Assembly (NCBI GenBank): GCA_020137815.1
Contig: CM035356.1
Span: 6,386,001 to 6,450,000, forward strand
Source of the DNA: Hormiphora californensis
Taxonomy: Eukaryota; Animalia; Ctenophora
Reading direction: 5' to 3'
Length of the DNA stretch: 64,000 nucleotides
Under the pieces are notes generated by a model. That model was not told where the DNA came from. It saw only the letters and a list, made by a program, of their open reading frames with translations, and made no database searches. Below, one piece after another: positions 4,175-50,800 of the stretch (within the stretch, counting starts at the first letter, position 1; each line of letters starts with the position of its first letter). The position numbers were made by a program, and so were the translations under genes.

Positions 4175-7100
4175 TTAGTAAGCCCTGATAACGGGTGGGA
4201 CGGTCTTGCACTCCTCCTCATCAAGTGTAATGTCAATAACAGGACGGTAATCGAGAGTCGTTTCACCGGTAGCAGCGTTCTGGTAGGACAGGGTGTGTTT
4301 CCTCCAGTGTTCCTCCAAGGGCTTCTCGACCTGGCCTTCAAGTGGCACCTTGTAGTCGAACTCGTCGATCCTGTAGAGAGGAGAGAGAGTTAGATAGAGA
4401 AAGTAAGAGAGTTAGATAGAGTTAGTTATAGGAGGTAAGAGAGTTAGAGAGGGGGAGAGAGTTACATAGAGAAAGTAAGAGAGTTAGATAGAGAAAGTAA
4501 GAGAGTTAGATAGAGAAAGTTAGAGTTAGATAGGAGGTTACATAATATGAATAGAACGGTGCCCCAACGGTACGGATAGTAGGAGTGTAGGAAGTAATAA
4601 ATTGGGGATAACACTTAACAGTCAAATTAAACACCAGCTAAATTATACATGACTGTAATAGCGATGCGGCCCGGTTCGTAGAGGGCAGTATTTTGTGAGA
4701 CACTACCTATATTTTGAGTCGCCTGACACTGCGCTCCAATACATTACCTGTCAGGGTAGTCCTCACGAGCGTGGGCTCCACGACTCTCCTTCCTTGCACA
4801 GGCACTCTCGATAGTCTGGCAGGCATTCAGAGCAATATTCTGGAGCTCTAGTGTCTCAATTAGGTTCGTGTTCCAGATAAGACCAGTGTCATTGAGGTGA
4901 AGGTGATCCATCTTCTTGTAGACCTCCCTGGAAAAGTGAAACAATTGTGTTAGGGTCTGGGCGAGCACGTTGTGTTTGAGAGAGGGAGAGAGAATAAGAG
5001 TGACTATCAAGACAGCCATATTAAACATAGAAGAAGAATTGTCAACTAAAGAGAACTGATCATATCATGGACTGTCTTCACACTCCTATCAAGACGGTAA
5101 TCCCGTACCTAATTTTCTCGACTCCCTCCTCCAAAACCTCGCCAGTTCGGAAAACAGCCGCATAGTTCTGCATGGTTTTCTGGATCTCCATACGGACTGC
5201 AGCAGTCGTCTCAGTTCCCTGGGCGTGTCGCAGACCGTCAATGTTGGAAATTGATGCCTCGCCTGCGGGGAATTGTTGTGTGAAAACTGTTTGATTTTCA
5301 AACTAAAATAGAGATGTGAAACGGAGTAGTGAGAAAATAAAACAAGACTCTTATATAGAACATTTGAATATAATCACCTGCACTGTCCTTCAGCTCAGCC
5401 TGTGCAGCTCCTGGAGTATAATCCTCTTTGATGGTATGAGCACACGCCCGTCCAAAGGCAACCAAATCTAGGAGAGAGTTAGCTCCCAGCCTGTTGGCCC
5501 CATGCACACTGGCACACGCAGCCTCGCCCGCAGCGAGCAATCCTGGAATAACCTTGTCTTTACCAGTGGCGTGGTCGAAGGTGATCACCTGAGAGGAAAT
5601 AGGTGGTTATTATATTCGGAAAATGTGATTATTATTCGGAAAATGTGAATCGGTACGATGTACGTGATATGGGAGTGTGCGCGGTGTTGCGAGGTCACGT
5701 GACAATTGCTGTCACTGAATGCTTTCCATATGTGCGCGTCACCGCGCCATCCTCCCTCCTTCCCCCGCATCTTACCTCTCCTCTCCAGTTGGTAGGGGTG
5801 CCTCCCATGTTGTAATGGACGGTAGGTAATACGGGAATAGGTTCTCGTGTGACATCTACTCCGGCAAAGATCATGGCAGTCTCGGAAATTCCAGGGAGTC
5901 GCAGGGCAAGCTGTTCCGAAGGCAAGTGAGAAAGCTGGGAGGAACGTTCGTTACTAATTTTGGATTCTGGAACGAAGCCAAAAATCGTCACACACACGTA
6001 CACACACGTCACACACACTAATAAAACAATTTGATTTTTCTAACCTGTAGATGAATATGGTCTCCCTCAGGTCCACAGCCTCGTCCCTCTCTTATCTCAA
6101 TTGTCATGGCCCTACTGACGACGTCTCGAGAAGCCAAATCCTTTGCATTAGGTGCATATCTTTCCATGAATCTCTCTCCATTTTTGTTGGTCAAGAAACC
6201 GCCCTCCCCTCGGCATCCCTCTGTAATGAGACATCCTGCTCCGTAGATGCCTGGAGAGGGAGGGATTGAGGAGATATTAGAGCGAGGGGTGAGGCTGTTA
6301 GGTATACATTTGAGTTGTTCATTTAGACCACCCTTCAAGTAATCGAAATCCAGCTAAAGAAGAAGAAAAGTCCAGCAAAAAGAGCGTTCAAAATTCACCG
6401 ACCCCAAGGGGATTATAATTGTGGCCGGGGGATCATCCCTAAGACTCACCGGTTGGGTTCAAATCAATACTAACCAGTTGGGTTCAAATCAATACTCACC
6501 AGTTGGGTTGGTGACGCGGTCACCCCTCCACTAGGGCCGCGCGAAGCTCGTGTCATCACCAACCAGTTGGGTTCAAATCAATACTAACCAGTTGGGTTCA
6601 AATCAATACTAACCAGTTGGGTTCAAATCAATACTCACCAGTTGGGTTCAAATCAATACTCACCAGTTGGGTTCAAATCAATACTAACCAGTTGGGTTCA
6701 AATCAATACTAACCAGTTGGGTTCAAATCAACATTAATACTAACCAGTTGGGTTCAAATCAACATCAATACTCACCAGTTGGGTGAAACTGCACAAACTC
6801 CATGTCCTGGTTGGGTAGGCCAGCTCGTGTTACCATAGCAGTACCATCCCCAGTACACGTGTGAGCACTGGTACATGAGAAATAGGCCCTTCCGTAACCT
6901 CCACTTGCTAGGACCGTGTTTTGAGATCTGAATCTGTGGATACTACCGTCTTCCATACACATTGCAACCACACCTGGGGAGAGTGTATACAGGTTAGAGC
7001 AAGAGAGGGAAAAGAAGTGCTGGGTTCTAAAAACTCATATATTTTCCCTCTCTTGCTCTAAAATGTATCTATAAAGTTGTGAGCAAGAGAGGGAAAAGAT

Positions 7101-10100
7101 ATGTTTTTTTCGGACCTTTTAGATGCTATTTTTATACCTAAACTTTAGTCATAAATATAGCGTCAAAAAGCATTGCCTGCTGCTTATATTATTATGCCCT
7201 CACGACAATTGTATTACTTAACAACAGGGTGACTCTATTGTTTGTGTACACAGATCAGTACACACATTATCACTGTCAGTATACACTTCGGTGAAATACA
7301 ATATGCAGGAACCGACCGAATCAGGAAATACTGGTCCCTGATTGGCTGATAACCAGTCACGTGACCTAAATAACGAGTTCTGATTGGTTGTTTACTTGTG
7401 TCGGTCGGTTCCTGACAATATGGCTGTGTGACTTCACGCAGACATATAATTGTACATTTACACAATGTTTCCCTCTCTCTGTCATGTATGTTGCATGTCT
7501 ACTTATTACCAGTGTGTGGGTGTGTTAAAATTGAACCGAACTGTGTTGTGTGTTCACTGTTCATTAGGAACAGTGTAAATTGTCACACTCTTTTTTCTCT
7601 CACATTTCACTAAAAACTCACCCTTGCATTCTCACATTTCATTAAAAACTCACCCTTGCATTTCACTAAAAACTCACCCTTGCATTCTTACATTTCACTA
7701 AAAACTCACCCTTGCATTTCACTAAAAACTCACCCTTGCAATTCACTAAAAACTCACCCTTGCATTCTTACAATTCACTAAAAACTCACCCTTGCATTTC
7801 ACTAAAAACTCACCCTTGCATTTCACTAAAAACTCACCCTTGCATTTCACTAGAAACTCACCCTTGCATTTCACTAAAAACTCACCCTTGCATTCTTACA
7901 TTTCACTAAAAACTCACCCTTGCAATTCACTAAAAACTCACCCTTGCATTCTTACAATTCACTAAAAACTCACCCTTGCATTTCACTAAAAACTCACCCT
8001 TGCATTTCACTAAAAACTCACCCTTGCATTTCACTAAAAACTCACCCTTGCATTTCACTAAAAACTCACCCTTGCATTTCACTAAAAACTCACCCTTGCA
8101 TTTCACTAAAAACTCACCCTTGCATTCTCACATTTCACTAAAAACTCACCCTTGCATTCTCATATTTCACTAAAAACTCACCCTTGCATTCTCACAATTC
8201 ACTAAAAAACTCACCCTTGCATTCTCACAATTCACTAAAAACTCACCCTTGCATTCTCATATTTCACTAAAAACTCACCCTTGCATTTCACTAAAAACTC
8301 ACCCTTGCAATCTCACATTTCACTAAAAACTGACCCTTGCATTCTCACATTTCACTAAAAAACTCACCCTTGCATTTCACTAGAAACTCACCCTTGCATT
8401 TCACTAAAAACTCACCCTTGCATTCTTACATTTCACTAAAAACTCACCCTTGCAATTCACTAAAAACTCACCCTTGCATTCTTACAATTCACTAAAAACT
8501 CACCCTTGCATTTCACTAAAAACTCACCCTTGCATTTCACTAAAAACTCACCCTTGCATTTCACTAAAAACTCACCCTTGCATTTCACTAAAAACTCACC
8601 CTTGCATTTCACTAAAAACTCACCCTTGCATTTCACTAAAAACTCACCCTTGCATTCTCACATTTCACTAAAAACTCACCCTTGCATTCTCATATTTCAC
8701 TAAAAAACTCACCCTTGCATTCTCACAATTCACTAAAAACTCACCCTTGCATTCTCATATTTCACTAAAAAACTCACCCTTGCATTTCACTAAAACCTCA
8801 CCATTGCATTCTTACAATTCACTAAAAACTCACCCTTGCATTTCACTAAAAACTCACCCTTGCATTCTCACATTTCACTAAAAACTCACCCTTACATTTC
8901 ACTAAAAACTCACCCTTGTATTCTTAAATTTCACTAAAAACTCACCCTTGCATTCTCTCATTTCACTAAAAACTCACCCTTGCATTCTCACATTTCACTA
9001 AAAACTCACCCTTGCATTCTCACAATTCACTAAAAACTCACCCTTGCATTCTCATATTTCACTAAAAACTCACCCTTGCATTCTTACATTTCACTAAAAA
9101 ACTCACTCTTGCATTCTCATATTTCACTAAAAACTCACCCTTGCATTCTCAAATTTCACTAAAAACTCACCCTTGCATTCTTACATTTCACTAAAAACTC
9201 ACCCTTGCATTCTTACATTTCACTAAAAAACTCACCCTTGCATTCTCACATTTCACTAAAAAACTCACCCTTGCATTTCACTAAAACCTCACCATTGCAT
9301 TCTTACAATTCACTAAAAACTCACCCTTGCATTCTTACATTTCACTAAAAACTCACCCTTGCATTCTCACATTTCACTAAAAAACTCACCCTTGCATTTC
9401 ACTAAAAAACTCACCCTTGCATTCTCACCTTTCACTAAAAACTCACCCTTGCACTCTTGCATTTCACTAAAAACTCACCCTTGCATTTTACTAAAAACTC
9501 ACCCTTGCAATCCACTAAAAACTCACCCTTACATTCTTACATTTCACTAAAAACTCACCCTTGCATTTCACTAAAAACTCACCCTTGCATTCGCCGTCCT
9601 CCATGATAAGGTCCAGTGCGAAATACTCGATAAAGTAGCTACAGTTGTAGGCGAGAGATCGGCCGTATAGTGTGTGGAGAAGGGAGTGACCTGTCCTGTC
9701 CGCAACGCAACAACACCTATCGAGAGTGGATAATTTTAAATTAATCACTATCAAACATTAGGGGGTATGTATAAACCCGGATAACCCGGATAACCCGGAT
9801 AGTCCGGATAATTGATGTTTTAGAGATATATCTGGATAACCAAGCTCGGATATGGGACTCCGGATAACTCGGATACTGAAATCCGGATAACTTGGATAAC
9901 TCGGATAAGGGTCCGAATAACTCGGATAAATGTCCGGATAACTCGGATAAGGGTCCGGATAACTCGGATAAGGGTCCGGATAACTCGGATAAGGATCCGG
10001 ATAACTCGGATAAATGTCCGGATAATTGATGTTTTAGAGATATCCGGATAACCAAGCTCGGATATGGGACTCCGGATAACTCGGATACTGAAATCCGGAT

Positions 10101-11919
10101 AACTTGGATAACTCGGATAAGGGTCCGGATAACTCGGATAAATGTCCGGATAACTCGGATAAGGGTCCGGATAACTCGGATAAGGGTCCGGATAACTCGG
10201 ATAAATGTCCGGATAACTCGGATAAGGGTCCGAATAACTCGGATAAATGTCCGGATAACTCGGATAAATGTCCGGATAACTCGGATAAGGGTCCGGATAA
10301 CTCGGATAAATGTCCGGATAACTCGGATAAGGGTCCGGATAACTCGGATAAATGTCCGGATAACTCGGATAAATGTCCGGATAACTCGGATAAGGGTCCG
10401 GATAACTCGGATAAATGTCCGGATAACTCGGATAAGGGTCCGGATAACTCGGATAAATGTCCGGATAACTCGGATAAATGTCCGGATAACTCGGATAAGG
10501 GTCCGGATAACTCGGATAAATGTCCGGATAACTCGGATAAGGGTCCGGATATCTCTAAAACATCAATTATCCGGAATATCCGGGTTATCCGGGTTTATAC
10601 ATACCCCCTAGTGTTCCTTTTTTAGGGGCCACCCTGTAACTTACCTGTGAGCCTGGCCACCCTTCCCGTAGTTATAACTCTGTCCACCGAATGCTCTTTG
10701 GTAAATAAGTCCCTCGTCAGTCCGACTGAATGGCATGCCATAGTTTTCCAACTCGATAACTGCCTTGGGCGCTTCTCTGGAGAATGGAGTATGGGCGTTG
10801 GAAAATATTGAATAGTATCAGTTTCATATTCTAACCCAGGAGGAGCCCTCTAACCCTTCTAAGTATTGAGAGAGAGATAGCGAGACTTTGGAGTGAGATT
10901 CAAGTAATGCAAATAATTTGTATTTTATAACACACCTGCACATGTAGTGAATGGCATCTTGATCGCCCAACCAATCGCTACCCTTCACTGTATCGTAATG
11001 GTGCCACCTCCAATCATCAGTCTCCATGTTACCCAGAGCAGCGTTGATACCACCTGAGGGGTGGGGAACAATTAGGGAACAATTAGGGAACAGTTATGGA
11101 ACAATTAGGGAACAATTAGGGAACAGCTAGGGAACTATTAGGGACCAAGGGGGTTAAATCTGATGAGCTTTATAGAAGTAGAAAATGAAAAAAATTTCAC
11201 CTCACTAGGCTGTCACAAGGATCTTCAGATAAAACACACTAGACCTACCTTGAGCAGCGACGGTGTGTGATCGTGTGGGGAAGAGTTTGCTAATTACAGC
11301 TGTTTTGAAACCCGCCTCGGCACATCCGAATGCTGCCCGTAACCCGGCACCACCGGCACCAACTACCACTGTGTCATAGGTGTGATCTACCACGGTGTAG
11401 TTGCCGTGCATCTGGTCTGTAGGGGTGGATGAGGAGGGGTTAGAGAGGTGGGGATGGGGTTAGAGGGTGGAGGGGGTGGTTTTAGGGGGTCAGCGGGATG
11501 GAGGAGGGGAGTTATAATAGTCTTGAGGGGGGGCAACCAAGCGAAAACATCACACGTTCTCTCACACAAGCAGAAATCGGGCGTGAGAGAGAGAGAGAGG
11601 GATACCCATGCAAACCCAACGAAAACATGTCCTCTCATCTCTCATTAATCAAATGTGTTCTAAACCATGGTGACATCCTAAAAATACTTTAATCCTCCTG
11701 ATCCTTCCCTCTCTCAATCTTTGAGATTGAGAGGAGGATGGAGAGAGCTGAAGGGAGAGAGCGAGAGAATGTGTGAGTGAGAGAGAGAGAACGTGTGAGT
11801 GAGAGAGAGAACTAACCAGGTCTTGAAGAGTTGGCCGCTGATCCGACAGGGCAAATGTGAAGGGATCTGGCAGCAAGCCTCTTGGCGGCTGAAACAGCTG
11901 AGCTACTTCGGGTTATCAT
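4175..11919 (-). CDS. SDHA: Succinate dehydrogenase flavoprotein subunit, mitochondrial (12 coding exons)
   Basis: Exons 11817-11919, 11249-11416, 10936-11053, 10645-10776, 9583-9716, 6776-6973, 6045-6250, 5776-5934, 5378-5588, 5109-5262, 4748-4927, 4175-4370; all GT-AG and phase-consistent. Motifs [103 protein letters not shown]; Arg/Ser/Ala-rich transit peptide. Confidence 0.98.
4380..4545 (-). repeat. Degenerate ~22-bp repeat of the branch-point region (CTAACTCTCT...) in the last SDHA intron
   Basis: Repeated GAGAGTTAGATAGAGAAAGTAA on +, directly upstream (minus strand) of the acceptor at 4371. Confidence 0.7.
6444..6785 (-). repeat. 25-bp tandem array of the SDHA exon6/intron6 donor junction
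   Basis: Minus-strand unit TGAACCCAACTG|GT(G/T)AGTATTGATT; true junction CACCCAACTG|GTGAGTATTGAT at 6776/6775; ~11 copies, interrupted by a ~50-bp insert at ~6510-6560. Confidence 0.9.
7306..7414. mobile_element. hAT-like MITE (CAGGAACCGACCG TIR), copy 2
   Basis: Same TIRs as the 511 copy; perfect 8-bp target-site duplication ACAATATG (7298-7305, 7415-7422). Confidence 0.92.
7601..9591 (-). repeat. 24/32-bp tandem array of the SDHA exon5/intron5 donor junction (~70 copies)
   Basis: Minus-strand unit CAAGG|GTGAGTTTTTAGTGAAATG with an optional extra 8 nt (TGAGAATG/TAAGAATG); true junction GAATGCAAGG|GTGAGT at 9583/9582. Confidence 0.95.
9759..10610. mobile_element. Non-autonomous TIR element with internal 21-bp GGATAA-based tandem repeats (SDHA intron 4)
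   Basis: TAGGGGGTATGTATAAACCCGGATAACCCGG...CCGGGTTATCCGGGTTTATACATACCCCCTA; internal CCGGATAACTCGGATAA(GGGT/ATGT) array; no clear TSD. Confidence 0.8.
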
Positions 11920-12294
11920 TGTGCTACAGCAAAGGAGTAATAGGTTAGGGGCGGCATCAAATTGGAGGACCTTTGGTCTTACGGCTACTGAGGGGGGCAG
12001 ACGGGTTGAAAAAGTCACTTTCGGTGTTAGGAAACATTAGGAAACATTAGGAAACACATTGAGTGGGTGCAAGTAAAGATTTCATCAAGAAAAAAGAAAA
12101 GAGAACTTAAACGCCCACACTAAAGTGGCGTGTAAGATTAAAATATAACTGAACAACATCAACTTTAAATTAAACTCATCCCGCAGCGTTTATATAATAA
12201 AATTTTTTACACATGCTACATTTTTTCTGAAATTTAACTGCGATCTACCCCAATACAACGTCATCAAAAACAGCAACAAAATATTAAACCAACA

Positions 12295-15200
12295 CTACTT
12301 TGGGTTGATCTGTACAGCGTTATCTCTCTCCAAGTTAGCAAATGGATCAACATGTGCCTCCTCGTTAACTCGTGTTAACAAAAGGATAACGGTTAACATT
12401 CCAAATAGACTGATGATCAATATAACTATCCAACGGCGGAGATTAGCAGAAAAGGGATCGTCTCTCGTCCGACTTTTTGACACATGCAATCTGAGATCGG
12501 GAGATGATAAATTAGGGTCGGGGTGAGTAACAAATGGGTGAGTAACAAATGGAGAACAATTTTCTGAGGAAGGTGTTGTGGGAAGAATTATTACCTGAGC
12601 CATCGGGTCAACCATTCTTTCAAACTACGACGTCTGTATTTATCCTCATCACAGTCAAATGATGCTACACTGGGTCTGACTGGCTCCTCCCGTGAGTCTA
12701 CCGCTACCTTGCTCCTGTCATAGGAACCTGTGTGGAGAACAAATGAGGGGGTTAGGAACCTGTGTGGAGAACAAATGAGGGGGTTAGGAACCTGTGTGGA
12801 GAACAAATGAGGGGGTTAGGAACCTGTGTGGAGAACAAATGAGGGGGTTAGGAACCTGTGTGGAGAACAAATGAGGGGGTTAGGAACCTGTGTGGAGAAC
12901 AGATGAGGGGGTTAGGAACCTGTGTGAAGAACAAATGAGGGGGTTAGGAACCTGTGTGGAGAACAAATGAGGGGGTTAGGAACCTGTGTGGAGAACAAAT
13001 GAGGGGGTTAGGAACCTGTGTGGAGAACAGATGAGGGGGTTAGGAACCTGTGCGGAGAACAGATGAGGGGGTTAGGAACCTGTGCGGAGAACAGATGAGG
13101 GGGTTAGGAACCTGTGTGAAGAACAAATGAGGGGGTTAGGAACCTGTGTGGAGAACAAATGAGGGGGTTAGGAACCTGTGTGAAGAACAAATGAGGGGGT
13201 TAGGAACCTGTGTGGAGAACAAATGAGGGGGTTAGGAACCTGTGTGGAGAACAGATGAGGGGGTTAGGAACCTGTGTGGAGAACAAATGAGGGGGTTAGG
13301 AATCTGAGTGAAGAACAAATGAGGGGGTTAGGAACCTGTGTGGAGAACAGATGAGGGGGTTAGGAACCTGTGTGGAGAACAAATGAGGGGGTTAGGAACC
13401 TGTGTGGAGAACAAATGAGGGGGTTAGGAACCTGTGTGAAGAACAAATGAGGGGGTTAGGAACCTGTGTGGAGAACAAATGAGGGGGTTAGGAACCTGTG
13501 TGGAGAACAGATGAGGGGGTTAGGAACCTGTGTGGAGAACAAATGAGGGGGTTAGGAACCTGTGTGGAGAACAGATGAGGGGGTTAGGAACCTGTGTGAA
13601 GAACAGATGAGGGGGTTAGGAACCTGTGTGAAGAACAAATGAGGGGGTTAGGAACCTGTGTGGAGAACAAATGAGGGGGTTAGGAACCTGTGTGGAGAAC
13701 AAATGAGGGGGTTAGGAACCTGTGTGGAGAACAAATGAGGGGGTTAGGAACCTGTGTGGAGAACAAATGAGGGGGTTAGGAACCTGTGTGGAGAACAGAT
13801 GAGGGGGTTAGGAACCTGTGTGGAGAACAAATGAGGGGGTTAGGAACCTGTGTGGAGAACAGATGAGGGGGTTAGGAACCTGTGTGGAGAACAAATGAGG
13901 GGGTTAGGAACCTGTGTGGAGAACAAATGAGGGGGTTAGGAACCTGTGTGAAGAACAAATGAGGGGGTTAGGAACCTGTGTGGAGAACGAATGAGGGGGT
14001 TAGGAACCTGTGTGGAGAACAAATGAGGGGGTTAGGAACCTGTGTGGAGAACAAATGAGGGGGTTAGGAACCTGTGTGGAGAACAGATGAGGGGGTTAGG
14101 AACCTGTGTGGAGAACAAATGAGGGGGTTAGGAACCTGTGTGGAGAACAAATGAGGGGGTTAGGAACCTGTGTGGAGAACAGATGAGAGGGTTAGGAACC
14201 TGTGTGAAGAACAAATGAGGGGGTTAGGAACCTGTGTGGAGAACAAATGAGGGGGTTAGGAACCTGTGTGGAGAACAGATGAGGGGGTTAGGAACCTGTG
14301 TGAAGAACAAATGAGGGGGTTAGGAACCTGTGTGGAGAACAAATGAGGGGGTTAGGAACCTGTGTGAAGAACAAATGAGGGGGTTAGGAACCTGTGTGAA
14401 GAACAAATGAGGGGGTTAGGAACCTGTGTGGAGAACAAATGAGGGGGTTAGGAACCTGTGTGGAGAACAAATGAGGGGGTTAGGAACCTGTGTGGAGAAC
14501 AGATGAGGGGGTTAGGAACCTGTGTGGAGAACAGATGAGGGGGTTAGGAACCTGTGTGGAGAACAAATGAGGGGGTTAGGAACCTGTGTGAAGAACAAAT
14601 GAGGGGGTTAGGAACCTGTGTGAAGAACAAATGAGGGGGTTAGGAACCTGTGTGGAGAACAAATGAGGGGGTTAGGAACCTGTGTGGAGAACAAATGAGG
14701 GGGATAGGAACCTGTGTGGAGAACAGATGAGGGGGTTAGGAACCTGGGTGGAGAACAAATGAGGGGGTTAGGAACCTGTGTGGAGAACAAATGAGGGGGT
14801 TAGGAACCTGTGTGGAGAACAAATGAGGGGGTTAGGAACCTGTGTGAAGAACAGATGAGGGGGTTAGGAACCTGTGTGGAGAACAGATGAGAGGGTTAGG
14901 AACCTGTGTGGAGAACAAATGAGGGGGTTAGGAACCTGTGTGGAGAACAGATGAGGGGGTTAGGAACCTGTGTGGAGAACAAATGAGGGGGTTAGGAACC
15001 TGTGTGAAGAACAAATGAGGGGGTTAGGAACCTGTGTGGAGAAAAGATGAGGGGGTTAGGAACCTGTGTGGAGAACAAATGAGGGGGTTAGGAACCTGTG
15101 TGAAGAACAAATGAGGGGGTTAGGAACCTGTGTGGAGAACAAATGAGGGGGTTAGGAACCTGTGTGGAGAACAAATGAGGGGGTTAGGAACCTGTGTGGA

Positions 15201-18200
15201 GAACAGATGAGGGGGTTAGGAACCTGTGTGGAGAACAAATGAGGGGGTTAGGAACCTGTGTGGAGAAACAAATGAGGGGGTTAGGAACCTGTGTGGAAGA
15301 ACAAATGAGGGGGTTAGGAACCCTGTGTGAGAACAAATGAGGGGGTTAGGAACCTGTGTGGAGAACAAATGAGGGGGTTAGGAACCTGTGCGGAGAACAG
15401 ATGAGGGGGTTAGGAACCTGTGTGGAGAACAAATGAGGGGGTTAGGAACCTGTGTGGAGAACAAATGAGGGGGTTAGGAACCTGTGGTGGAGAACAAATG
15501 AGGGGTTAGGAACCTGTGTGGAGAACAGATGAGGGGGTTAGGAACCTGTTGTGGAGAACAAATGAGGGGGTTAGGAACCTGTGTGAAGAACAAATGAGGG
15601 GGTTAGGAACCTGTGTGAAGAACAAATGAGGGGGTTAGGAAACCTGTGTGGAGAACAAATGAGGGGGTTAGGAACCTGTGTGGAGAACAAATGAGGGGGT
15701 TAGGAACCTGTGTGGAGAACAGATGAGGGGGTTAGGAACCTGTGTGGAGAACAGATGAGGGGGTTAGGAACCTGTGTGAAGAACAAATGAGGGGGTTAGG
15801 AACCTGTGTGGAGAACAAATGAGGGGGTTATGGAACCTGTGTGGAGAACAAATGAGGGGGTTAGGAACCTGTGTGAAGAACAAATGAGGGGGTTAGGAAC
15901 CTGTGTGGAGAACAAATGAGGGGGTTAGGAACCTGTGTGGAGAACAAATGAGGGGGTTAGGAACCTGTGCGGAGAACAGATGAGGGGGTTAGGAACCTGT
16001 GTGGAGAACAAATGAGGGGGTTAGGAACCTGTGTGGAGAACAAATGAGGGGGTTAGGAACCTGTGTGGAGAACAAATGAGGGGGTTAGGAACCTGTGTGG
16101 AGAACAGATGAGGGGGTTAGGAACCTGTGTGGAGAACAAATGAGGGGGTTAGGAACCTGTGTGAAGAACAAATGAGGGGGTTAGGAACCTGTGTGAAGAA
16201 CAAATGAGGGGGTTAGGAACCTGTGTGGAGAACAAATGAGGGGGTTAGGAACCTGTGTGGAGAACAAATGAGGGGGTTAGGAACCTGTGTGGAGAACAGA
16301 TGAGGGGGTTAGGAACCTGTGTGGAGAACAAATGAGGGGGTTAGGAACCTGTGTGGAGAACAAATGAGGGGGTTAGGAACCTGTGTGGAGAACAAATGAG
16401 GGGGTTAGGAACCTGTGTGGAGAACAAATGAGGGGGTTAGGAACCTGTGTGGAGAACAAATGAGGGGGTTAGGAACCTGTGTAGAGAACAAATGAGGGGG
16501 TTAGGAACCTGTGTGGAGAACAAATGAGGGGGTTAGGGGGCAAAGAAAATTATTGAATCATGACCCTCTTTTCCTTACAAGAAAGTTAAAATGGGTACGT
16601 GCTGTCAAGTCAAGTCGTAAATAGAAATGACACAGTGGCAAGTTTCTATTGCAACATGACAAAATAAATTCCCGTAACTTGAAGTGGTTACCCTAGTTAC
16701 CATGGTAGTTTAGTCACTCTAGTTACCATGGTAGTTAAGTTACCCTAGTTACCCTGTATAGTAGTACCTGTGTTAGGTGACACAATTCCCACTGGAATGG
16801 AGCTGTCCTGCTTTTTAACCAGGGCCGCAACTGCAGGCGGTGTCTTAGGTTCAACCTCTGCTGCTTCTTGTTGCAGGGGTGGTCCGGGGGATGGCGTAAG
16901 TTTTACCACCGCTAGAAACAGATATTATTGATTATTTCATAGTCCTATTTTCTGCTCAAAGAAAAAAAATAGGGCCGGTTATTTCTAAAGATCAGCATAT
17001 TGTGTTTAAAGCAAAAAAGGTAAGCTATCACCGACTAACCGTTAGTACGTGCGGTTGGCATTGGTGTGCTAGTGTGTATGGGCGGTGGGAGGGTTCTGGG
17101 TACTACTGGCAGGCCGAGACCGGGCCGGGCCCAGGTCTCAGTAGCAAGGCCACTCCTCAGCGCCTCCGCAATGGCAGACTTGTTACTAGGTTCAGGGAAT
17201 ATTCCCTCCTGCGTGAGAGGGGTTTAAACATCATCAGATAGTTTTTACCCTTCAAAACTTCCACCAAAATATCCAACCAAAACAGAAACTTGGTCACGAA
17301 ATGACAACCCTCACACTCTGAGTGGTGATTAATAATTAACTAATTACAGTCGGACCCCGATTTAGTGGCATCCTCGGGGGAAAGAAATCCTGCCACTAAA
17401 TCGGGGTGCCACTAAATCGGGGTGAGCCATATTTGGCCCATAAAAACCTATTTTATGCCCAAAATGCTATACTAAGACTAAAGACACCTGTTATATGCAA
17501 TATTCATGTATTGATGACATGATCATATCTAATTAGAAATAGAAAACTATCAAATAACTTTTTCAAAAAATTTGTGAAAAATTTTCTAAGTCATACCAGC
17601 CCGTCCAATTTGTGTTTCGAATCGGTGCAGCTTCCTGGATGTCCTGTCTAATTAGCAGGTTCGAAACGAACCGATACGTGATACCATGCCGAATCGGTGC
17701 ACCCTAAGCGGGTGAGGAAGTATCAAAATTTCAAAATAACATTTTCTCTCAAAATTTATGGGGAGCACCGATCAAAGCATTGACAATCGTACTGTAAAAT
17801 TTTGCAAAAAAAAGTTTTAAAATTTTTTAAAGGTATACCAGCCACGTCCGAATCGTGTTTCGAATCGGTGCATCTTATCGCATGTCTTGCTGCTAATTAG
17901 ACGGTTCGGAACGAATCGAAACGTGATCCCCATCGAATCGAAATTTTGACGCTTGGTAAACTTATGACTCAATGGCCCCATGGGGATCACGTATCGGTTC
18001 GTTCCGAAATGTTAATTAGCAGCAGGACATGCGATAAGATTCACTGATTCGAAACACGATTTGGACGTGGCTGGTATTCCTTTGAAAAATTTTCAAAAAA
18101 TTTTCAAAAAAATTCACAAAAAAATTCAAAAAAATTTTTGGGGGAAAAAAATCCTGCCACTAAATCGGGGTGCCACTAAATCGGGGGCCACTAAATCGGG

Positions 18201-18661
18201 GTCCGACTGTACCTAATTACTAATTACCACACTAACCTGGCATGTTATACAGGTGTAACCCCCAGGTGCAGTGGTGGCCGGTAGGGACTGGGCGTATTTA
18301 GTCAGGCACTGTTTATGAAACACGTGTAGACATAGTAGTCGGATAGTGGGGTGTGCAGATAGTGGGTCGTTACAGAACCGACAGTTAGGCACGTACTCCG
18401 AGTCTTGCAGCCATTTTAGATAAGTTTGGACAATACACTGTGTGGAATAAAATGGTTGTTTTTATCTTTTGTGAAATCAAAAGTTATTACACTTGGTTTA
18501 TTTATATCAGTCTGAAATCGGTTGTCAAAGCTAAGATATAAGATGAAATGTTTGGGTACCTGGGAGTGAGTTGAGAGAAGACAAGTCTCACAGACGTTTA
18601 CCCGACATTCAAAACAAAACAAGTTTGTGACCTTCTTCAGCGGACATTTACAGAGCCCCAT
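12295..18661 (-). CDS. ZFPL1: Zinc finger protein-like 1 (B-box-like + RING/PHD-like zinc fingers, C-terminal TM; cis-Golgi), 6 exons
   Basis: Exons 18560-18661, 18237-18437, 17040-17208, 16768-16911, 12595-12727, 12295-12490, phase-consistent. [28 protein letters not shown]...[15 protein letters not shown]...RLLCLHVFH...TAPGGYTC...WARPGLGLP...DEDKYRRR...TM...DPF. Confidence 0.95.
12721..16537 (-). repeat. 32-bp tandem array (~119 copies) of the ZFPL1 intron-4 branch point + acceptor junction
   Basis: Minus-strand unit ACCCCCTCATTTGTTCTCCACACAG|GTTCCTA; true junction CACACAG|GTTCCTATGAC at 12728/12727. Confidence 0.97.
17347..18209. mobile_element. Tc1/mariner-type MITE (CAGTCGGACCCCGATTTAG TIR, TA TSD) in ZFPL1 intron 2
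   Basis: TA|CAGTCGGACCCCGATTTAGTGGC...GCCACTAAATCGGGGTCCGACTG|TA; sub-terminal CCACTAAATCGGGG repeats; internal ~100-bp inverted repeat at 17835-18080. Confidence 0.88.
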
Positions 18662-28316: not shown

Positions 28317-37419
<9,103 letters not shown>

Positions 37420-38377: not shown

Positions 38378-41300
38378 CTAGTTTTCCTGCAGTTGGAGGT
38401 GTCCTTTTGGTATTTCAGTACGTTGTTCCTCCTCTTGATTCTCCATGGTAACGACAGTCTCCTCCCTAGCAACCGTCTCCATGGCATCCGGTTCATCAGT
38501 GAACTCCTGATGGTTTATTGGTTTCACTCGTTTTACCATCATTACAGATATGGTCGAGAGTGCTATGCAGCCACAACCAATTAGTGTCCACACGTCCGGG
38601 TACTCCCTGTAGGAAAAATGAACATGAATTTAGTGGATTGGGGACAAGGGACTCGGATCTAGTGTGCAGATAGACCCTCTGGAATATTGCAGATTGATTC
38701 AGTCACTAATGAAACAAAGGAAGAGAGTTCATCTACAGAAGAAAGAAAAACTCAAAAGATCACCGCTAATCAACAAACTAGCCGATATAGTATACCACAC
38801 ATCACACCATATATTACCTGAAAATGAGAAACTGGAACCCAAAAGGCAGGATGACATCCAGGTACTTTAGAAGGGAAGTTTTACCGGGTTGTCCATACTG
38901 CATCGCTGCACAGACTGACAGTTGTTGGAGACAGTACATTAACCCAACCATCCACAGGTAGGTAAAGTTCTGAGGGAGGAATCAGATAGGAGATTAGGAG
39001 GTTTTGAGAGGGATTGCAGTAGTTGTGTGAGGGAGATAGGAGGTTTTGAATTGGGAGATATGCGGTTCTGAGAGGGGGAGATGAAGTTCTGAGAGGGGGA
39101 GATGTGGTTCTGAGAGGGGGAGATGTGGTTCTGAGGGAGGGAGATGTGATTCTGAGGGAGGGAGATGTGGTTCTGAGAGAGGGAGATGTGGTTCTGAGAG
39201 AGGGGAGATGTGGTTCTGAGAGAGGGAGATGTGGTTCTGAGAGAGGGAGATGTGGTTCTGAGGGAGGGAGATGTGATTCTGAGGGAGGGAGATGTGGTTC
39301 TGAGGGAGGGAGATGTGGTTCTGAGGGAGGGAGATGTTTACTGTGTAGTTGTATGAGGGAGAGATAGGAGGTTCTGAATTGGGAGATATGGTTTGGAATT
39401 GGTTCTCGTTTACTGGGGCCTGGGCCGCGGGGGATCGATAAGAGGAGGTTTTGTCTGGCAACCCGATATGAGCGCACTGTTTGAGAGTCAAAACGGGGTC
39501 TTGTGTGTAGAATTAGATGGACTCGGTTGAAGCAAGATCAAAACCAGCTTCATTCTTCTATCTTCATGAAGACATGGCCTCTCATTTTTTACAACTAATT
39601 ACCAGAATTGAAGGCAATGTCCAGGTTTTCTTCATGTCCTTGTCTGCAATGCTTTCAACCAATACGGTTACTGAAAAGGAAGAGTGAGTGAGAGGACGAG
39701 TGAGTGTAGAGACACGACATCTATGACATGGTAAGCACATATGGTATCCACATGATAACCACATGCTATGCACATGGTATCCAAATGGTAACCACATGGT
39801 AACCACATGGTAACCACATGGCAACCACATGGTAAATACATGGTAACCACATGGTAACCACATGGTAACCACATGGCAACCACATGGCAACCACATGGTA
39901 ACCACATGGTAACCACATGGTAACAAGCTATAATTACCCATAAGAATGAGTGTAGAGACAAGAAATCCAAGGGAACTCAGACACATTACTATCACAGTTG
40001 TAGGGACTGCCCCGGTACACGATACTGACACATACTTTGCTGCCTTGAAGAAGCCTCTTCCTGTTGTTCGGAGGGATTGTAGGTTAGTATCTCTATTATA
40101 ATTTGGAGATGTCGCGTCGAAGTGGCCGTTCGTTCAGTGCGTTTCTAAGCGACAGTGCTCCTTCATAAAACACTTCATATGACGAAAGCTGTAAATCTGT
40201 TATTCACACTTTTGGAACTTCCGGTGGAAGTTTGTTAATATTTTTGAATGACTTTCAACATGTCAGTTCCGAAAGCTATCAATTCAGTTGCCATGGCAAC
40301 CGTGTTATTGACGTGGAAGGGGGCGAAAAGAACCACCCGGCGAAGCCGGGTGGGTTATCAAAAAGCCCTTACTTGAGGCGCACCCAATGGGTGCGCTAGT
40401 ACTAGGTATAATTAGGATTTAGGCTGCCCGGGTTTCTTGTGTTTGAAACTGTGATTGTTTTAGTCTGAGAAATACTGATTACTGAATGATGAAATGATCT
40501 GCTGATAATGTCATAACATTACCTAGAGCGACGACAATGGAGATATAGAAAACAGGAGAGCTCCTCCCACTCTCTCCACCCCCAAATATAAAGGAAGGCT
40601 GGGCCACAAAGAACACCCCAACGGTTGCCACCACAAGGGAGATGTAGTCAAATATCAGGAGTTTTTCTTTCAGGAACACGTGAGATAGGAGGACTGTGAA
40701 GATCGGAGCTGTAGTCAGAAGGAGGGTCGCCTCACCTGTAAATTACAGTGTAATGGAGCTGTTACCATGGTTACCTGGTCACCGGGGTTACTAGGAAGCG
40801 ATGTACAGGGGATTACGCGATGTGCCCAACGGGGTTACCAAGGTTACCATTAAGGTTACCAGGTTACCAAAGTTACTCGAACCCCTCTCTTTCGAACTCC
40901 ATTTTGGGCAGGCCACAGCGGTAGTAACAACACACCCTACCTACCGATGGGAAGATGACGGAGGGCAAAGACAGTTGACATTGCGGTAAGTGTTCCCAGA
41001 ATGGCCGTCAGCACTATCATCCTCCAGTTTTGGTATTCCGTGGGTCCTGGGTACCTGGTCAAGGGGGAGGTATAGTAATCAACTCAGTAATAAAAATAAG
41101 TTCAAAATAACGGGTGACAACTAAAAATCTGGACACTTTTCTGTGAGCTCTAGCGCCGTCCCCGTTTGAGATACAGCTTCAGGCCAGTGATAGAACGAAT
41201 TTTCAGACAATTTTGAATCAGAATAACACAACGGGAAAGACTTAAAAGTTCATTTTCATTGCGATATCGCATCACTTCCTCTTCCCCCACCAAAGCATGT

Positions 41301-44854: not shown

Positions 44855-47800
44855 TCACTCTGTTGATCGTTTGTTCACGTACTCGTACAGATTACCCTCG
44901 TCACACTCGGTACAACTACAGTACTGGATCTGCTGGATTTCAATGTCTTGGACGACACCTGGAGGAAGAGAGGAGGGTTAGTTGTATGTTGGTGATGTTC
45001 GGCACGGAGTGACGGCCGGTTAATGTAACGTGAAAGGTGAAGACATCATATAATATAATATTCAAGTATTTCAATAGTACAACATAAATTAGGAGAATGA
45101 TCAGCTATAGATGTTTGGAACACGAACAGAACTGTCAGAGCATGGACCTGACAGGAACAAACTGGTATAATAACCTACCGAAACAGTCGAAAGAATGCAC
45201 TTCGGTCAGCATGGTTGGAAGACAACACTTGCAGGTTGTGATCAGTTGCCCATAATCGTCCCTCGCTTGAGATCGCTCACAGGGTGAATACTCAAAGCAG
45301 TATTTGATGATAATCGGGTTAACCTGTAACAATATCGGGCCGTTATGATCAGCATTTAATTATATTAGTGAGCAGGTATGTTACCCCTCTGCACTATACT
45401 ACAGTACTACAGTACTTAATACTAGCTCACGGATATGCTATAATAGGGGTGACTTCGCGTAACTAAGCTACTTACCGAGACACAGATGGTATCGTTGTGA
45501 ACAACTGTTATCTTGTCAGTAGGGAGGACAGTCTGGACGGAACATTTTGGAAGGGAGCCAGGTGGTGCGGTAGTGACGGTTGGTTTAACGGTGGTTTCAG
45601 GTTCTGCTGAGGTGGTCGCAATGGGGGAGGTCGCTGTAGGGGGAGGAATGTGTTAGCAATTTGATGATGTAATCCCTCTCTCTTGCCCTAATAATTCAGT
45701 AGCTGGTTACCCCTTCCTCCTCCCTTGCCAAACAAACAATGGGGTAACCTGGGGGTAACCAGTAGTGTCACCAGGGGGTAACCAGGAGGTAACCAGGAGG
45801 TAACCAGTGGGTAACCATTGGATACCAACAACACATACCCCCGAAACTTACTTGTAATAGTTCGTGTCTTCTTGCAAATGTGTAGGGTAGGTTTGTAGTG
45901 GCCAGTTGTTGCGTCCTCATTATCGGTAAAGAGAGGTACAGATCCTTCTGTAGTTTCATCGTCAGCAATCAGTACGAAACCGTAGTTCTCCTCCACTCCG
46001 TTCTCTGCCCAGTCGGCGAGTGTGTCGGCAATGTTCACCTGCACACAGTGGTAATTAGGGAGATATTTAAGAATTGTTCTTAAATTTCAACCTAAAATAT
46101 AAATTTTGACTCGTAATATTGACCTACAGGAGGAACGAGTAAAACTAGGGAGGAAGGGAGACTGAGAGAGGTTTGAGAGACAAAGAAAGCAGGGGAGTAA
46201 AAAGACAGAGCATTGTAAAAAATATTTGTAAAAAAAGGAACAGCTCTTTCTGCTAAGTACATACCCAGATGGCAGTGCCTCCCACTTGGTCAATAGAGAC
46301 AACAGCCTCCCCAATCGATTGGGAGTTGTAGTTTGTTTTGATGTCGTCCCAAGACACTGTATCTTCATTCCAATCAGTCGTGATCTAGGGGGGACAATAA
46401 GACATTATCTCTTGCTCAAACTAATCATCTCCAAGATAACCAAGATCTTTGGGGCGTATAACTATAAAGATAAACAGATCTTATATAAGTTTCACCTATT
46501 ACCCCCTCGGCCTCAATATATTGCTTCGGCCCGGTGTGATCGAGCCGACAGCTACTGAGAACATGTCAATCACTAATTATTAATTAGTAATTAATTAATT
46601 ACCTTGTACACAGAGAAGGAAGTGTTTCTTGTGCTGTCAGTGCTACTTGGTTTCAGGTAGTTCAACTTGATCCACCCGTCATTTACCTCTACATACTTGA
46701 AATCTAGGAGGAACCCGGGGATTAGCCAAAATAAAGACAAATGTTCAAGTGAGCTCTCACACTAAAGAGATAATTGCTAGATAATTAATGACTTAGTTAA
46801 CAAATTAGTCATCTACATAATTACCAAACTACAAATTAAAAACAACGGTGGTTTTTATATTCTATATAATTACCAAAATAAGAAACTTACTACTTCCAAT
46901 GACGGAACTGACATCAAACTTAATAACGGTCCTGTACACGTTTCCATCAACATCCTTTCCGACAGTCAGGGACTCATTGTTGTATCCCTTATCGTCATTG
47001 TGCACCAGAAGGGTCGTGGCAGTCACTTCAACGGTCTTCTCGTAGAAACTATCCGATTCGTTACAAACCTGGGGGTGAATGATGTTATATTAGTACTTAG
47101 TAGTAGAGTTATATTATTAGTGATTGAGTTATATGAGTAGTAGTAGAGTTATATTACTAGTTATTGAGCTATATTAGTAGTGATAGCAATATTATATCAG
47201 AGCAATTGAATCTGGGGGAAAAGTACTAAAGTAGGAGCATAGTACTCCCATGGGGGGAATCCATAATCAAACGGGTGGGGGATCAAGCAAAAGAATTAAA
47301 CTTACAGGAACGTCGACGATTTTGTAGCAAATATCGATGTAAGGGATGAACTCAGTGACATCGGAATCGTTGGTGAAACTATAATATCGGATATCCTTGG
47401 CTGATGTTCCTTCAGTTGATCCATCAGTGTACTTGTTCACCAACGCAACACCATAGTTAACCTACGCATAATATAATTACAAGACAAATCTCTCCACTTC
47501 AGAGCTTCATATTCCACCTCAAATGAAGATTAACTCATACCTTGTTATCACTGGAATCGTAAGGGCTGATCCATTCCCGGATGGTGTCAGTGAAATCAGC
47601 GACAACTTCCTTGTCATAAGTTGGTTCCTTGTTCAATGGGTCAAACTCTCCGGTTTTGTCCTACAAAATAAATTATTTCAAACCAAGAAACACAATCGAT
47701 TGAAAATTATAAAGTACTGGGACATAGAAATGGATAAAAAAGTTAAAAAAAGAAATATAACCTACCCCTAAATTCTGTTCAGAAGTCAACTGTCCGGTAG

Positions 47801-50800
47801 AAGTGATAACATTTCCAAAGCTCCTATCCATAGGGTAAAGCTCCGTCACCTGAGACTTCCAATCATCGGTACCTTCAGATTCAGGCTTGACAATGAGAGT
47901 CAGATAGGACTCGTATACCACAACCTGCTCCGCGGGTGGCCGAGAGCTGTAATCAACCAGATCAAATACCAAACCGGACAATCGAAGTGGGTTAGTAGAA
48001 GTTCGCCCGATGATAAGTTCATTGAGGTTCTCGAAACCGGAATAACCCTCCGTGAAAACAGCAGAATCAATGAGAGAGCTGAGGGGGACGACATCCCGGT
48101 AACCATCTTCTGGCTTCGTGCATTCCACTGGTTCGACTGGCGATGTTGTGGTACTTGAGGTAGTTGGAGTGGTAGTGCTGGAAGTAGTTGATGGAGTGGT
48201 GGTACTAGAGGTAGTTGATGGAGTTGTGGTACTTGAAGTAGTTGATGGAGTTGTGGTACTGGAGGTTGTTGATGGAGTTGTAGTGCTTGAGGTAGTTGAT
48301 GGAGTGGTAGTGCTAGATGTAGTTGATGGAGTGGTAGTGCTTGAAGTAGTTGATGGAGTGGTAGTGCTAGATGTAGTTGATGGAGTGGTGGTGCTAGATG
48401 TAGTTGATGGAGTGGTGGTGCTTGAGGTAGTTGATGGAGTGGTAGTGCTAGATGTAGTTGATGGAGTGGTAGTGCTTGAGGTGGTTGATGGAGTAGTGGT
48501 GCTTGAAGTAGTTGATGGAGTGGTGGTGCTTGAGGTGGTTGATGGGGTAGTTGTGCTTGAAGTAGTTGATGGAGTGGTTGTGCTTGAGGTGGTTGATGGA
48601 GTAGTAGTACTTGAGGTAGTTGATGGAGTGGTGGTGCTTGATGTTGTTGATGGTGTAGTGGTACTTGAGGTAGTTGATGGTGTAGTGGTACTTGAGGTAG
48701 TTGATGGAGTAGTTGTGCTTGAGGTGGTTGATGGAGTAGTAGTACTTGAGGTAGTTGATGGAGTTGTAGTGCTGGACGTAGTTGATGGCGTGGTAGTGCT
48801 AGAGGTAGTTGATGGAGTGGTAGTGCTTGAGGTGGTTGATGGAGTAGTGGTGCTTGAAGTAGTTGATGGAGTGGTTGTGCTTGAAGTTGTTGATGGAGTA
48901 GTGGTACTTGAGGTAGTTGATGGAGTGGTAGTGCTTGAGGTAGTTGATGGAGTAGTGGTGCTTGAGGTAGTTGATGGAGTGGTAGTGCTGGACGTAGTTG
49001 ATGGGGTAGTGGTGCTAGAGGTAGTTGATGGAGTGGTTGTGCTTGACGTGGTTGATGGAGTAGTGGTGCTTGAGGTGGTTGAGGGAGTGGTGGTACTTGA
49101 GGTAGTTGATGGAGTGGTAGTGCTAGATGTAGTTGATGGAGTGGTAGTGCTTGAGGTGGTTGATGGAGTAGTGGTGCTTGAAGTAGTTGATGGAGTAGTG
49201 GTGCTTGAGGTAGTTGATGGAGTGGTAGTGCTGGACGTAGTTGATGGGGTAGTGGTGCTAGAGGTAGTTGATGGAGTGGTTGTGCTTGACGTGGTTGATG
49301 GAGTAGTGGTGCTTGAGGTGGTTGAGGGAGTGGTGGTACTTGAGGTAGTTGATGGAGTGGTAGTGCTAGATGTAGTTGATGGAGTGGTAGTGCTTGAGGT
49401 GGTTGATGGAGTAGTGGTGCTTGAAGTAGTTGATGGAGTGGTGGTGCTTGAGGTGGTTGATGGGGTAGTTGTGCTTGAAGTAGTTGATGGAGTGGTTGTG
49501 CTTGAGGTGGTTGATGGAGTAGTAGTACTTGAGGTAGTTGATGGAGTGGTGGTGCTTGATGTTGTTGATGGTGTAGTGGTACTTGAGGTAGTTGATGGTG
49601 TAGTGGTACTTGAGGTAGTTGATGGAGTAGTTGTGCTTGAGGTGGTTGATGGAGTAGTAGTACTTGAGGTAGTTGATGGAGTTGTAGTGCTGGACGTAGT
49701 TGATGGCGTGGTAGTGCTAGAGGTAGTTGATGGAGTGGTAGTGCTTGAGGTGGTTGATGGAGTAGTGGTGCTTGAAGTAGTTGATGGAGTGGTTGTGCTT
49801 GAGGTGGTTGATGGAGTAGTAGTACTTGAGGTAGTTGATGGAGTGGTGGTGCTTGATGTTGTTGATGGTGTAGTGGTACTTGAGGTAGTTGATGGAGTGG
49901 TTGTGCTTGAAGTTGTTGATGGAGTAGTGGTGCTTGAGGTAGTTGATGGAGTGGTAGTGCTGGACGTAGTTGATGGGGTAGTGGTGCTAGAGGTAGTTGA
50001 TGGAGTGGTTGTGCTTGACGTGGTTGATGGAGTAGTGGTGCTTGAGGTGGTTGAGGGAGTGGTGGTACTTGAGGTAGTTGATGGGGTAGTTGTGCTTGAC
50101 GTGGTCGATGGGGTAGTTGTGCTTGAAGTAGTTGATGGAGTGGTAGTGCTTGATGTTGTTGATGGAGTGGTAGTGCTTGATGTAGTTGATGGAGTAGTTG
50201 TGCTAGACGTAGTTGATGGGGTAGTAGTGCTAGAGGTAGTTGATGGAGTGGTAGTGCTTGAGGTGGTTGATGGAGTAGTTGTGCTTGAGGTAGTTGATGG
50301 AGTGGTAGTGCTGGAAGTAGTTGATGGAGTAGTGGTGCTTGAGGTAGTTGATGGAGTGGTAGTGCTTGATGTAGTTGATGGAGTAGTGGTGCTTGAGGTA
50401 GTTGATGGGGTGGTAGTGCTAGAGGTAGTTGATGGAGTGGTAGTGCTTGATGTAGTTGATGGAGTAGTTGTGCTTGATGTGGTTGATGGAGTAGTGGTAC
50501 TTGAGGTAGTTGATGGAGTGGTGGTACTTGAGGTGGTAGATGGAGTAGTTGTGCTTGAGGTAGTTGATGGAGTGGTAGTGCTGGACGTAGTTGATGGGGT
50601 AGTGGTGCTAGAGGTAGTTGATGGAGTGGTTGTGCTTGACGTGGTTGATGGAGTGGTTGTGCTTGACGTAGTTGATGGAGTGGTAGTGCTTGAGGTAGTT
50701 GATGGAGTGGTAGTGCTTGAGGTAGTTGATGGAGTGGTGGTGCTTGAGGTAGTTGATGGAGTGGTAGTGCTGGACGTAGTTGATGGGGTAGTGGTGCTAG

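Follow-up and report, generated by a model that had tools for sequence, protein, structure and literature searches.

Tandem copies of exon-intron borders, called mirages, are known from amphioxus genes, namely Adh3, troponin C, the globins BflGb6 and BflGb9, and PGBD5 (PMC3087553, PMC3902484). The portions of these reports available to us give units of 10-160 bp (PMC3087553) and describe mirages, including one of the acceptor type, that leave splicing undisturbed (PMC3087553, PMC3902484), i.e., normal mRNA is still made from the affected genes. In humans, according to the available excerpts, a 37-bp VNTR in intron 7 of F7 has the real splice site in its first unit, followed by identical pseudo-sites that are functional but silent (PMC1557585), and a 25-bp VNTR in intron 18 of ABCA7 has alleles of up to ~427 units (PMC5954066). 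A related idea, the Rogers model, is outlined in the parts available of two papers and explains intron gain by duplication of AGGT-containing sequence (PMC3265369, PMC4974935).

Here, we describe an array of acceptor sites in intron 4 of ZFPL1 in the ctenophore Hormiphora californensis. The window, i.e., the whole stretch of DNA analysed, covers 64,000 nucleotides (GCA_020137815.1, contig CM035356.1, 6,386,001 to 6,450,000), and its features are collected in Table 1. The array spans an exon-intron border, has a unit size within the mirage range (32 bp), keeps its splice signals and consists of homogenised copies. As far as the available descriptions go, amphioxus mirages resemble the ZFPL1 array and two arrays in the neighbouring SDHA gene in that border copies stand in tandem, mostly keep AG/GT and affect both donor and acceptor borders. 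BflGb6 is of the same acceptor type as ZFPL1 (intron 3' end plus exon start). However, its 3-6 units of 150-160 bp contrast with 118 extra copies of 32 bp here, and in ZFPL1 the copies hold seven exon bases and a stop, the junctions read AG/GT and the host is a short-intron ctenophore. F7 and ABCA7, as described in the available text, are donor arrays, in which 5'-to-3' scanning picks the first site, and thus match the SDHA arrays, while in the acceptor array of ZFPL1 the last site must win. Formally, the ZFPL1 array could also be taken, in the sense of the Rogers model, as one GT...AG segment that begins in unit 1 and ends in unit 119. However, with an existing acceptor inside the duplicated sequence, neither an additional intron position nor an additional exon is created.

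Table 1. Positions in the window (minus strand) of the ZFPL1 exons, the intron 4 array and the SDHA arrays, with the evidence for each.
Feature	Position	Strand	Evidence
ZFPL1 coding exon 1, B-box-like zinc finger	18560..18661	-	gene model; Pfam zf-B_box E 3.8e-5
ZFPL1 exon 2, RING finger	18237..18437	-	gene model; domain match; 100% identity to P0001 across exon 2
ZFPL1 exon 3	17040..17208	-	gene model; 17040-17189 under RNA contig X16 record 1
ZFPL1 exon 4, donor opens intron 4	16768..16911	-	gene model; RNA contig X16 record 1
Unique 5' part of intron 4 (~230 nt)	16541..16767	-	donor to first decoy AG = 259 nt
Distal unit 1, likely ancestral branch-site region, microhomology at 16537-16534	16509..16540	-	unit listing; same flank in DNA run X2
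Decoy acceptors (118 units), with branch-like motif 24 nt upstream of AG, pyrimidine tract, AG, 7 exon bases, stop	12760..16540	-	repeat and unit analysis
Higher-order block, 16 unit types repeated at 18-unit offset, indel units mostly in second copy	15200..16320 (approximate)	-	unit-type comparison
Unit 119, coding acceptor of exon 5	12728..12759	-	gene model; homologs; RNA contig
ZFPL1 exon 5, 133 nt, purine-rich start	12595..12727	-	gene model; homologs; RNA contig
ZFPL1 exon 6, predicted membrane anchor and stop codon	12295..12490	-	gene model; homologs; hydrophobic segment
SDHA intron 4 donor-site array, 69 extra copies	7598..9582	-	repeat finding and boundary mapping
SDHA intron 5 donor-site array, 10-11 extra copies	6444..6775	-	repeat finding and boundary mapping

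Gene model and anatomy of the array

The six-exon model with exon 5 starting at 12727 encodes an open protein of 314 aa. It has N-terminal B-box and RING matches, a predicted C-terminal anchor (hydrophobic segment at about residues 270-289) and orthology to named ZFPL1 proteins, and is 68% identical to a Bolinopsis microptera protein of that name. Domain matches and homologs support the gene identity proposed in the first-pass annotation. In all four homologs examined, G-S-Y-D-R lies across the exon 4/5 join and therefore 12727 is the coding start of exon 5.

Tandem Repeats Finder reports the array at 12721-16537 with period 32, 119.1 copies and 96% matches. On the minus strand this corresponds to 119 AG-ended units, with the G of the AG running from 16509 down to 12728, each unit combining 25 intron bases and seven exon bases. 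The first-pass annotation had counted 119 decoys before the real acceptor; the number of units stands, but the last one is the real acceptor and 118 are decoys. It was right that the array fills most of the intron (3,813 of 4,040 bases, 94%). AG ends every upstream unit and is directly followed by GT in 116 of the 118. The decoys have the same acceptor score as the real site, 11.9 bits. Identical sequences are found in 57 of the 118 upstream units, and variation is concentrated at two tract positions, the variants being interspersed with no short period; the copies are homogenised, with tandem turnover that includes block duplication. In this turnover, 16 unit types recur at an offset of 18 units (units 8-23 and 26-41), a number reached in 0 of 200 shuffles (maximum 14). 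Seven units bear indels (numbers 23, 29, 31, 33, 38, 39 and 40). Such a recurring block is what unequal exchange is expected to leave.

The two ends of the array share a microhomology of 4 nt, between the ancestral branch-site region (16537-16534) and positions +4 to +7 of exon 5 (12724-12721), with mismatches on both sides. This supports the earlier proposal that a match between exon start and branch region seeded the array. When the window was searched for unit 20-mers with up to 4 mismatches, none was found outside the array, hence no dispersed repeat is seen locally.

A coding role of the array is ruled out by a stop every three units on both strands. Masking of the decoys by RNA structure was also rejected, as the last units together with the exon start form a less stable fold than shuffled sequences (z +1.8; as stable a fold in 196 of 200 shuffles) and, of the 16 inverted pairs found between 12200 and 18800, none reaches into the array with an arm.

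Decoy outcomes and the observed transcript

In model translations, 113 of the 118 decoys lead to Gly-Ser-stop and one to Asp-Ser-stop (207 aa), while the remaining four have delayed stops, at 218, 218, 239 and 240 aa. The earlier claim that each decoy gives an immediate stop thus holds for 114; truncation before the hydrophobic segment, and with it the membrane anchor, is predicted for all 118. Exons of a plausible length, 165-293 nt, would result from the nearest decoys. Together with the decoy scores, which are like that of the real acceptor, this speaks against a simply tolerated array, the explanation we prefer below.

The transcript evidence consists of one low-depth metatranscriptome contig, with two of the four RNA-labelled runs, X16 and X19, examined. 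This contig, X16 record 1, is 361 nt long, has a depth of 3.2 and maps to exons 3, 4 and 5. Behind 12733 it ends loose, and there its sequence is that of exon 4 (0 mismatches in 30). It thereby bears out the predicted join of 16768 to 12727, from exon 4 to the last acceptor. No repeat unit is covered in X16, which with one contig at depth 3.2 is silent about decoy use, and X19 covers no ZFPL1 exon. Seven listed exon differences separate the contig from the window; all seven match sample S4 and four are also found in organism B. The only exon-5 contig of S4 (X6 record 11) follows the unit for 12 nt and then turns into unrelated sequence, thus the transcript may derive from an allele that lacks decoys next to the acceptor. 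ZFPL1 carrying the array may be spliced normally, as the last acceptor is used in this one contig, whose allele is possibly without adjacent decoys.

Origin of the array and alternative explanations

We suggest that the array is probably a neutral mirage minisatellite, seeded at the microhomology, expanded by slippage or unequal exchange and tolerated by splicing to the exon-adjacent copy. The first duplication likely involved the 32 bases at the intron 4/exon 5 border, and slippage or unequal exchange would then have expanded them to 119 copies. The microhomology would rebuild a branch-like motif in each copy and therefore amplify whole acceptors. The last copy would win by exon definition, because only this copy precedes the full purine-rich exon and a nearby donor, while the decoys carry seven exon bases; purines make up 62% of the first 60 nt of exon 5 compared with 28% of the array unit. 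Any leak to a decoy would bring in a premature stop ahead of the last junction, and NMD would remove such transcripts, therefore selection against the array would be weak.

The surroundings of ZFPL1 are consistent with a general mutational process. Among the 30 boundaries of the 15 mapped introns of ZFPL1 and SDHA, the two genes of the window included in the count, three are amplified. The array is thus not the singular case that the first-pass annotation took it for. It belongs to a described class, the amphioxus mirages as presented in the available text (PMC3087553), and the adjacent SDHA has two donor arrays, which suggests that this genome is prone to such mutations rather than that ZFPL1 has a device of its own.

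An unlikely alternative is recursive removal of the array. Splicing from the exon 4 donor to decoy 1, 259 nt away, would regenerate a CAG/GT junction that re-splices to the last acceptor in one or several steps, and the resulting mRNA would be identical to the direct product, making the array self-correcting. Like the decoys, ratchet sites have an acceptor directly followed by GT, from which the donor is regenerated after splicing. Here, GT follows nearly all decoys, but it is also the natural start of exon 5. The last three bases of exon 4 are the same as those of the unit, which makes the regenerated donor identical to the unit junction. This donor reaches 7.4 bits compared with 2.6-12.7 (median 7.3) in the 15 real donors, the small set from which the matrix was built, and matches six of nine majority positions, like the five weakest of these donors. 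Short introns dominate locally (median of the 15 mapped introns 187 nt) and pairing across the intron would therefore favour decoy 1; that the spliceosome of a short-intron animal takes this decoy and then clears the array from the regenerated AG/GT is nevertheless improbable in our estimate. The ratchet points that are known occur singly, as conserved sites of very long introns, while ZFPL1 has 116 AG-GT copies at a spacing of 32 nt in an intron of 4 kb with a unique part of ~230 nt, i.e., no single site in a long intron. Partial re-splicing would mostly still end on a decoy, and the available text of one report states that in Drosophila and mammals the exon junction complex keeps regenerated sites from being spliced again (PMC8184009). 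Amphioxus mirages are spliced correctly and no such route is mentioned in the portions available (PMC3087553). The single RNA contig fits ratcheting and direct splicing alike, and the earlier proposal of recursive splicing at the AG/GT units finds no support in our data.

We are more doubtful still that the array tunes dosage, with a copy-number-dependent share of splicing lost to decoys and NMD, so that ZFPL1 expression would depend on array length, similar to the ABCA7 VNTR. Each of the 118 decoys is a poison site, and differences in repeat-to-flank depth among DNA runs X6, X2 and X7 hint at length variation, but contig depth differs from copy number. In the available account, the donor-containing ABCA7 VNTR gives one-unit retention and exon skipping; however, the retention is unaffected by VNTR length (PMC5954066). 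Decoy-spliced RNA was not found in the one contig of depth 3.2. The housekeeping neighbour SDHA has similar arrays, which speaks for a mutational process that is general. None of the 11 distinct substitutions hits the AG, an outcome that chance would give about half the time and that therefore is no sign of selection on the decoy AG. The suggestion that copy number tunes NMD and expression is thus without support in the present data.

Inflation of a shorter real array by the long-read assembly is improbable. We compared contigs of four of the 17 DNA runs, X5 and X6 (one sample), X2 (another sample) and X7; X6, a candidate RNA run, behaved as DNA. In X5, X6 and X2 the repeat bins have a much greater depth than the flanks. 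Single repeat contigs of X6 have depths of 3422 and 1506 compared with 207 in the flank, and an X2 contig enters the same distal flank of the array with 1 mismatch in 30; both argue against inflation, as do the interspersed variants with no short period. The peak repeat-to-flank depth is ~196-fold in X6, 33-fold in X2 and 3-fold in X7, although contig depth is not copy number. These ratios, again as depths and not copy numbers, and the differing exon-proximal end in S4 bear on haplotype length. Three loose ends of S4 have no good match in the window except a GA microsatellite. On the other side, the indel units are concentrated in or beside the second copy of the duplicated 16-unit block, and the last 12 kb of the window are G/T-rich and of low complexity, resembling unpolished read noise. 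A rough unitig calibration gives ~18, 7 and 3 copies in the other samples, but it is unreliable and inconsistent, falling below the lower bound of at least ~24-fold from the two X6 repeat contigs. About 18 units may represent a recent duplication or assembly stutter, which makes the total of 119 uncertain. A few copies also seem to be retained in organism B, which could mean that the array is old and weighs against our preferred reading.

Judging by nematodes, a position downstream of a real donor should favour cis-splicing, and the ZFPL1 decoys lie in such a position. It is very improbable that unpaired decoys take a spliced leader and thereby split some of the pre-mRNA into a 5' piece and a 3' piece capped by the leader: junctions between leader and unit were not found, even though the leader is widespread in ctenophores (on 56% of full-length reads in one species, in the available text of PMC8527503).

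Implications for splicing in ctenophores

If the array is a neutral mirage, the class described in lancelets extends to a ctenophore; our literature search found no paper on mirages in ctenophores. Among the cases compared, a set that leaves aside the Adh3 copy numbers, the ZFPL1 array has the highest acceptor copy number. Arrays that span a boundary mislead both gene prediction and assembly. Were the ratchet true, recursive splicing would tolerate a mutational accident, the array would be a natural self-correcting ratchet, and acceptor mirages would be largest where the exon begins with GT. With 118 sequence-equivalent acceptors before the real one, the locus offers a ready-made system for testing how a 3' splice site is chosen in a lineage that has short introns and trans-splices a spliced leader, and would set exon definition against re-splicing in an early-branching animal.

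The array in the ZFPL1 gene

The ZFPL1 model consists of six exons bounded by GT-AG and gives an open protein of 314 aa, with a B-box match in exon 1, a RING match in exon 2 and a hydrophobic stretch around residues 270-289. Exon 2 as a query returns 10 candidates, including four proteins. Among the homologs, P0001 is 91% identical to the model and P0003, named ZFPL1 of Bolinopsis microptera by its source, 68%. With the homolog P0002 as query, P0003 is 84% identical and the named non-ctenophore animals about 36-43%, which suggests a ctenophore origin of the window. All four homologs carry G-S-Y-D-R across the exon 4/5 join, so the coding start of exon 5 is at 12727. Intron 2 holds a MITE-like insertion that is polymorphic and contains nested inverted repeats, see the table.

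As the first-pass annotation had claimed, the array fills almost all of intron 4, covering 3,813 of its 4,040 bases (about 3.8 of 4.0 kb). It had also counted about 119 decoys before the real acceptor. The array is indeed present, but its 119 AG-ended units (16509 to 12728, minus strand) are 118 upstream acceptors plus the coding one. In each unit, the AG follows a pyrimidine tract and stands 24 nt behind a branch-like motif; after it come the first seven bases of exon 5. Identical copies make up 57 of the 118 complete units, and variation is mostly found at two pyrimidine-tract positions.

A run of 16 successive unit types reappears at a distance of 18 units, longer than any run in 200 shuffles, and all seven units with indels lie within or beside its second copy. 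This repetition represents either a recent unequal exchange or assembly stutter. The last 12 kb of the window are probably unpolished long-read noise, so the 119 units should be read as roughly 100-120.

The proposed CCTA microhomology between exon start and branch point is found at 16537-16534, where the bases are the same as those of exon 5 at +4 to +7 and the neighbouring bases on either side mismatch. The first duplication probably occurred at these 4 nt, which would explain the unit length as well as the branch-like motif rebuilt in every copy.

Choice of the acceptor

An immediate stop had been expected at every decoy. This is the case for 114 of 118 (113 Gly-Ser-stop and one Asp-Ser-stop, 207 aa), but not for the other four, three of them indel-bearing units, where stops come at 218-240 aa. 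The membrane anchor is nevertheless lost with all 118 upstream acceptors, in line with the predicted truncation before the TM. A decoy stop precedes the last exon junction by a wide margin, which makes NMD a plausible outcome for such transcripts.

In a matrix built from local sites, the decoys score the same as the real acceptor. Masking of the decoys by RNA structure was rejected, as folding and inverted-repeat results show no hiding. The last copy differs from the decoys in what comes after it: a 133-nt exon, whose first 60 nt are 62% purine vs 28% for the unit, and then a donor. For this reason, it is likely that exon definition selects the last copy, while NMD clears any leak.

The main rival is re-splicing from a regenerated AG/GT junction, which would result in the same mRNA. 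This junction scores like the median local donor; however, re-splicing is blocked by the exon junction complex in flies and mammals, according to PMC8184009, and we consider it unlikely here. Dosage tuning lacks direct support and appears improbable, inflation of the array during assembly likewise and somewhat more so. A spliced-leader sink, equally without direct support, is very improbable.

Alleles in DNA and RNA samples

Six of the 21 listed runs were examined, all as contigs. The following depths are not copy numbers. In sample S4, the bin with units 1-2 has a depth of 28,745 in run X5 vs 344-814 on the flanks, and the repeat contigs of run X6 are 3,422 and 1,506 deep vs 207. In sample S2 (run X2), repeat bins reach 10,237 vs ~310, and one contig continues out of the repeat into the same distal flank as in the window, with 1 mismatch in 30. 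In organism B (run X7), two contigs extend over 23-29 nt of the unit, and depth in the repeat bins is 150-205 vs 64, which suggests that it carries a few copies.

The only exon 5 contig of S4 (X6) departs from the unit after 12 nt (12728-12739) into unrelated sequence. In another contig, a GA microsatellite abuts a unit in the same register. Possibly, an insertion separates the array from the true acceptor in S4.

The predicted join of exon 16768 to exon 12727 is seen in one contig of the metatranscriptome run X16, with 144 and 67 bases on either side. This contig (361 nt, depth 3.2) covers exons 3, 4 and 5, and its loose end behind 12733 consists of sequence from exon 4. All seven exon differences listed between this contig and the window are shared with S4, four of them also with organism B, so that the contig may come from an allele without decoys beside the acceptor.

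Known mirages and neighbouring arrays

Mirages are minisatellites spanning an exon-intron border, and the ZFPL1 array shows four of their six features: it spans a border, has a minisatellite-sized unit, keeps the splice signals and has homogenised copies. On the other two, undisturbed splicing and length instability between haplotypes, the observations are the X16 contig that uses the last acceptor but may stem from an allele without adjacent decoys, the unequal repeat-to-flank depths of X2, X6 and X7, and the different exon-proximal end in S4. In amphioxus mirages leave splicing undisturbed, as stated in PMC3087553 and, in agreement, PMC3902484. In the human arrays, the donor copies of F7 are silent (PMC1557585), while the donor VNTR of ABCA7 does alter splicing (PMC5954066); both are donor-type, in contrast to the acceptor-type array of ZFPL1. 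No report of mirages in ctenophores was found in the literature searched, a scope that leaves out most subscription journals.

The gene next to ZFPL1 has 11 exons giving an open 616-aa frame, with FAD_binding_2 matches in two of three exons tested, and reads from its sequence as SDHA-like. ZFPL1 and this gene together have 15 mapped introns (median 187 nt), and border-spanning arrays occur at 3 of their 30 borders: at one acceptor in ZFPL1 and at two donors in SDHA. The distance from the donor to the first ZFPL1 decoy is 259 nt.

Arrays and other features of the window
Feature	Position	Strand	Description
SDHA intron 5 donor-site array	6444-6775	minus	10-11 extra copies, all with GT
SDHA intron 4 donor-site array	7598-9582	minus	69 extra copies, all with GT
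SDHA intron 3 array	9894-10555		21 bp, ~31 copies, mid-intron; no splice border spanned
Short branch-site-like motif arrays	11064-11148; 4398-4533	minus	directly upstream of two SDHA acceptors, AG excluded
Possible extra SDHA exon	11815-11920	minus	mitochondrial-presequence-like frame, <400 bp downstream of ZFPL1 stop codon; by eye
ZFPL1 intron 4 array	12721-16537	minus	32-bp period, 119.1 copies, 96% matches (Tandem Repeats Finder)
ZFPL1 intron 2 element	17345-18209		865 bp, terminal inverted repeats; missing from one X5 contig
12-bp array	34182-34425	minus	~20 branch-site-like motif copies, directly upstream of apparent acceptor near 34166; by eye
21-bp array	39060-39337	minus	13 acceptor-like copies, ~90 nt upstream of apparent acceptor near 38971; gene resembles membrane transporter; by eye
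Mucin-like open frame	47673-51878	minus	9-residue Ser/Thr/Pro unit x134
Low-complexity sequence	51760-64000		extreme G/T skew, degenerate, extending the mucin repeat

The ZFPL1 array is a real and unusually long acceptor-type mirage, of a class already described. Its value is that it naturally tests how 3' splice sites are chosen in an animal that branched early and has short introns.
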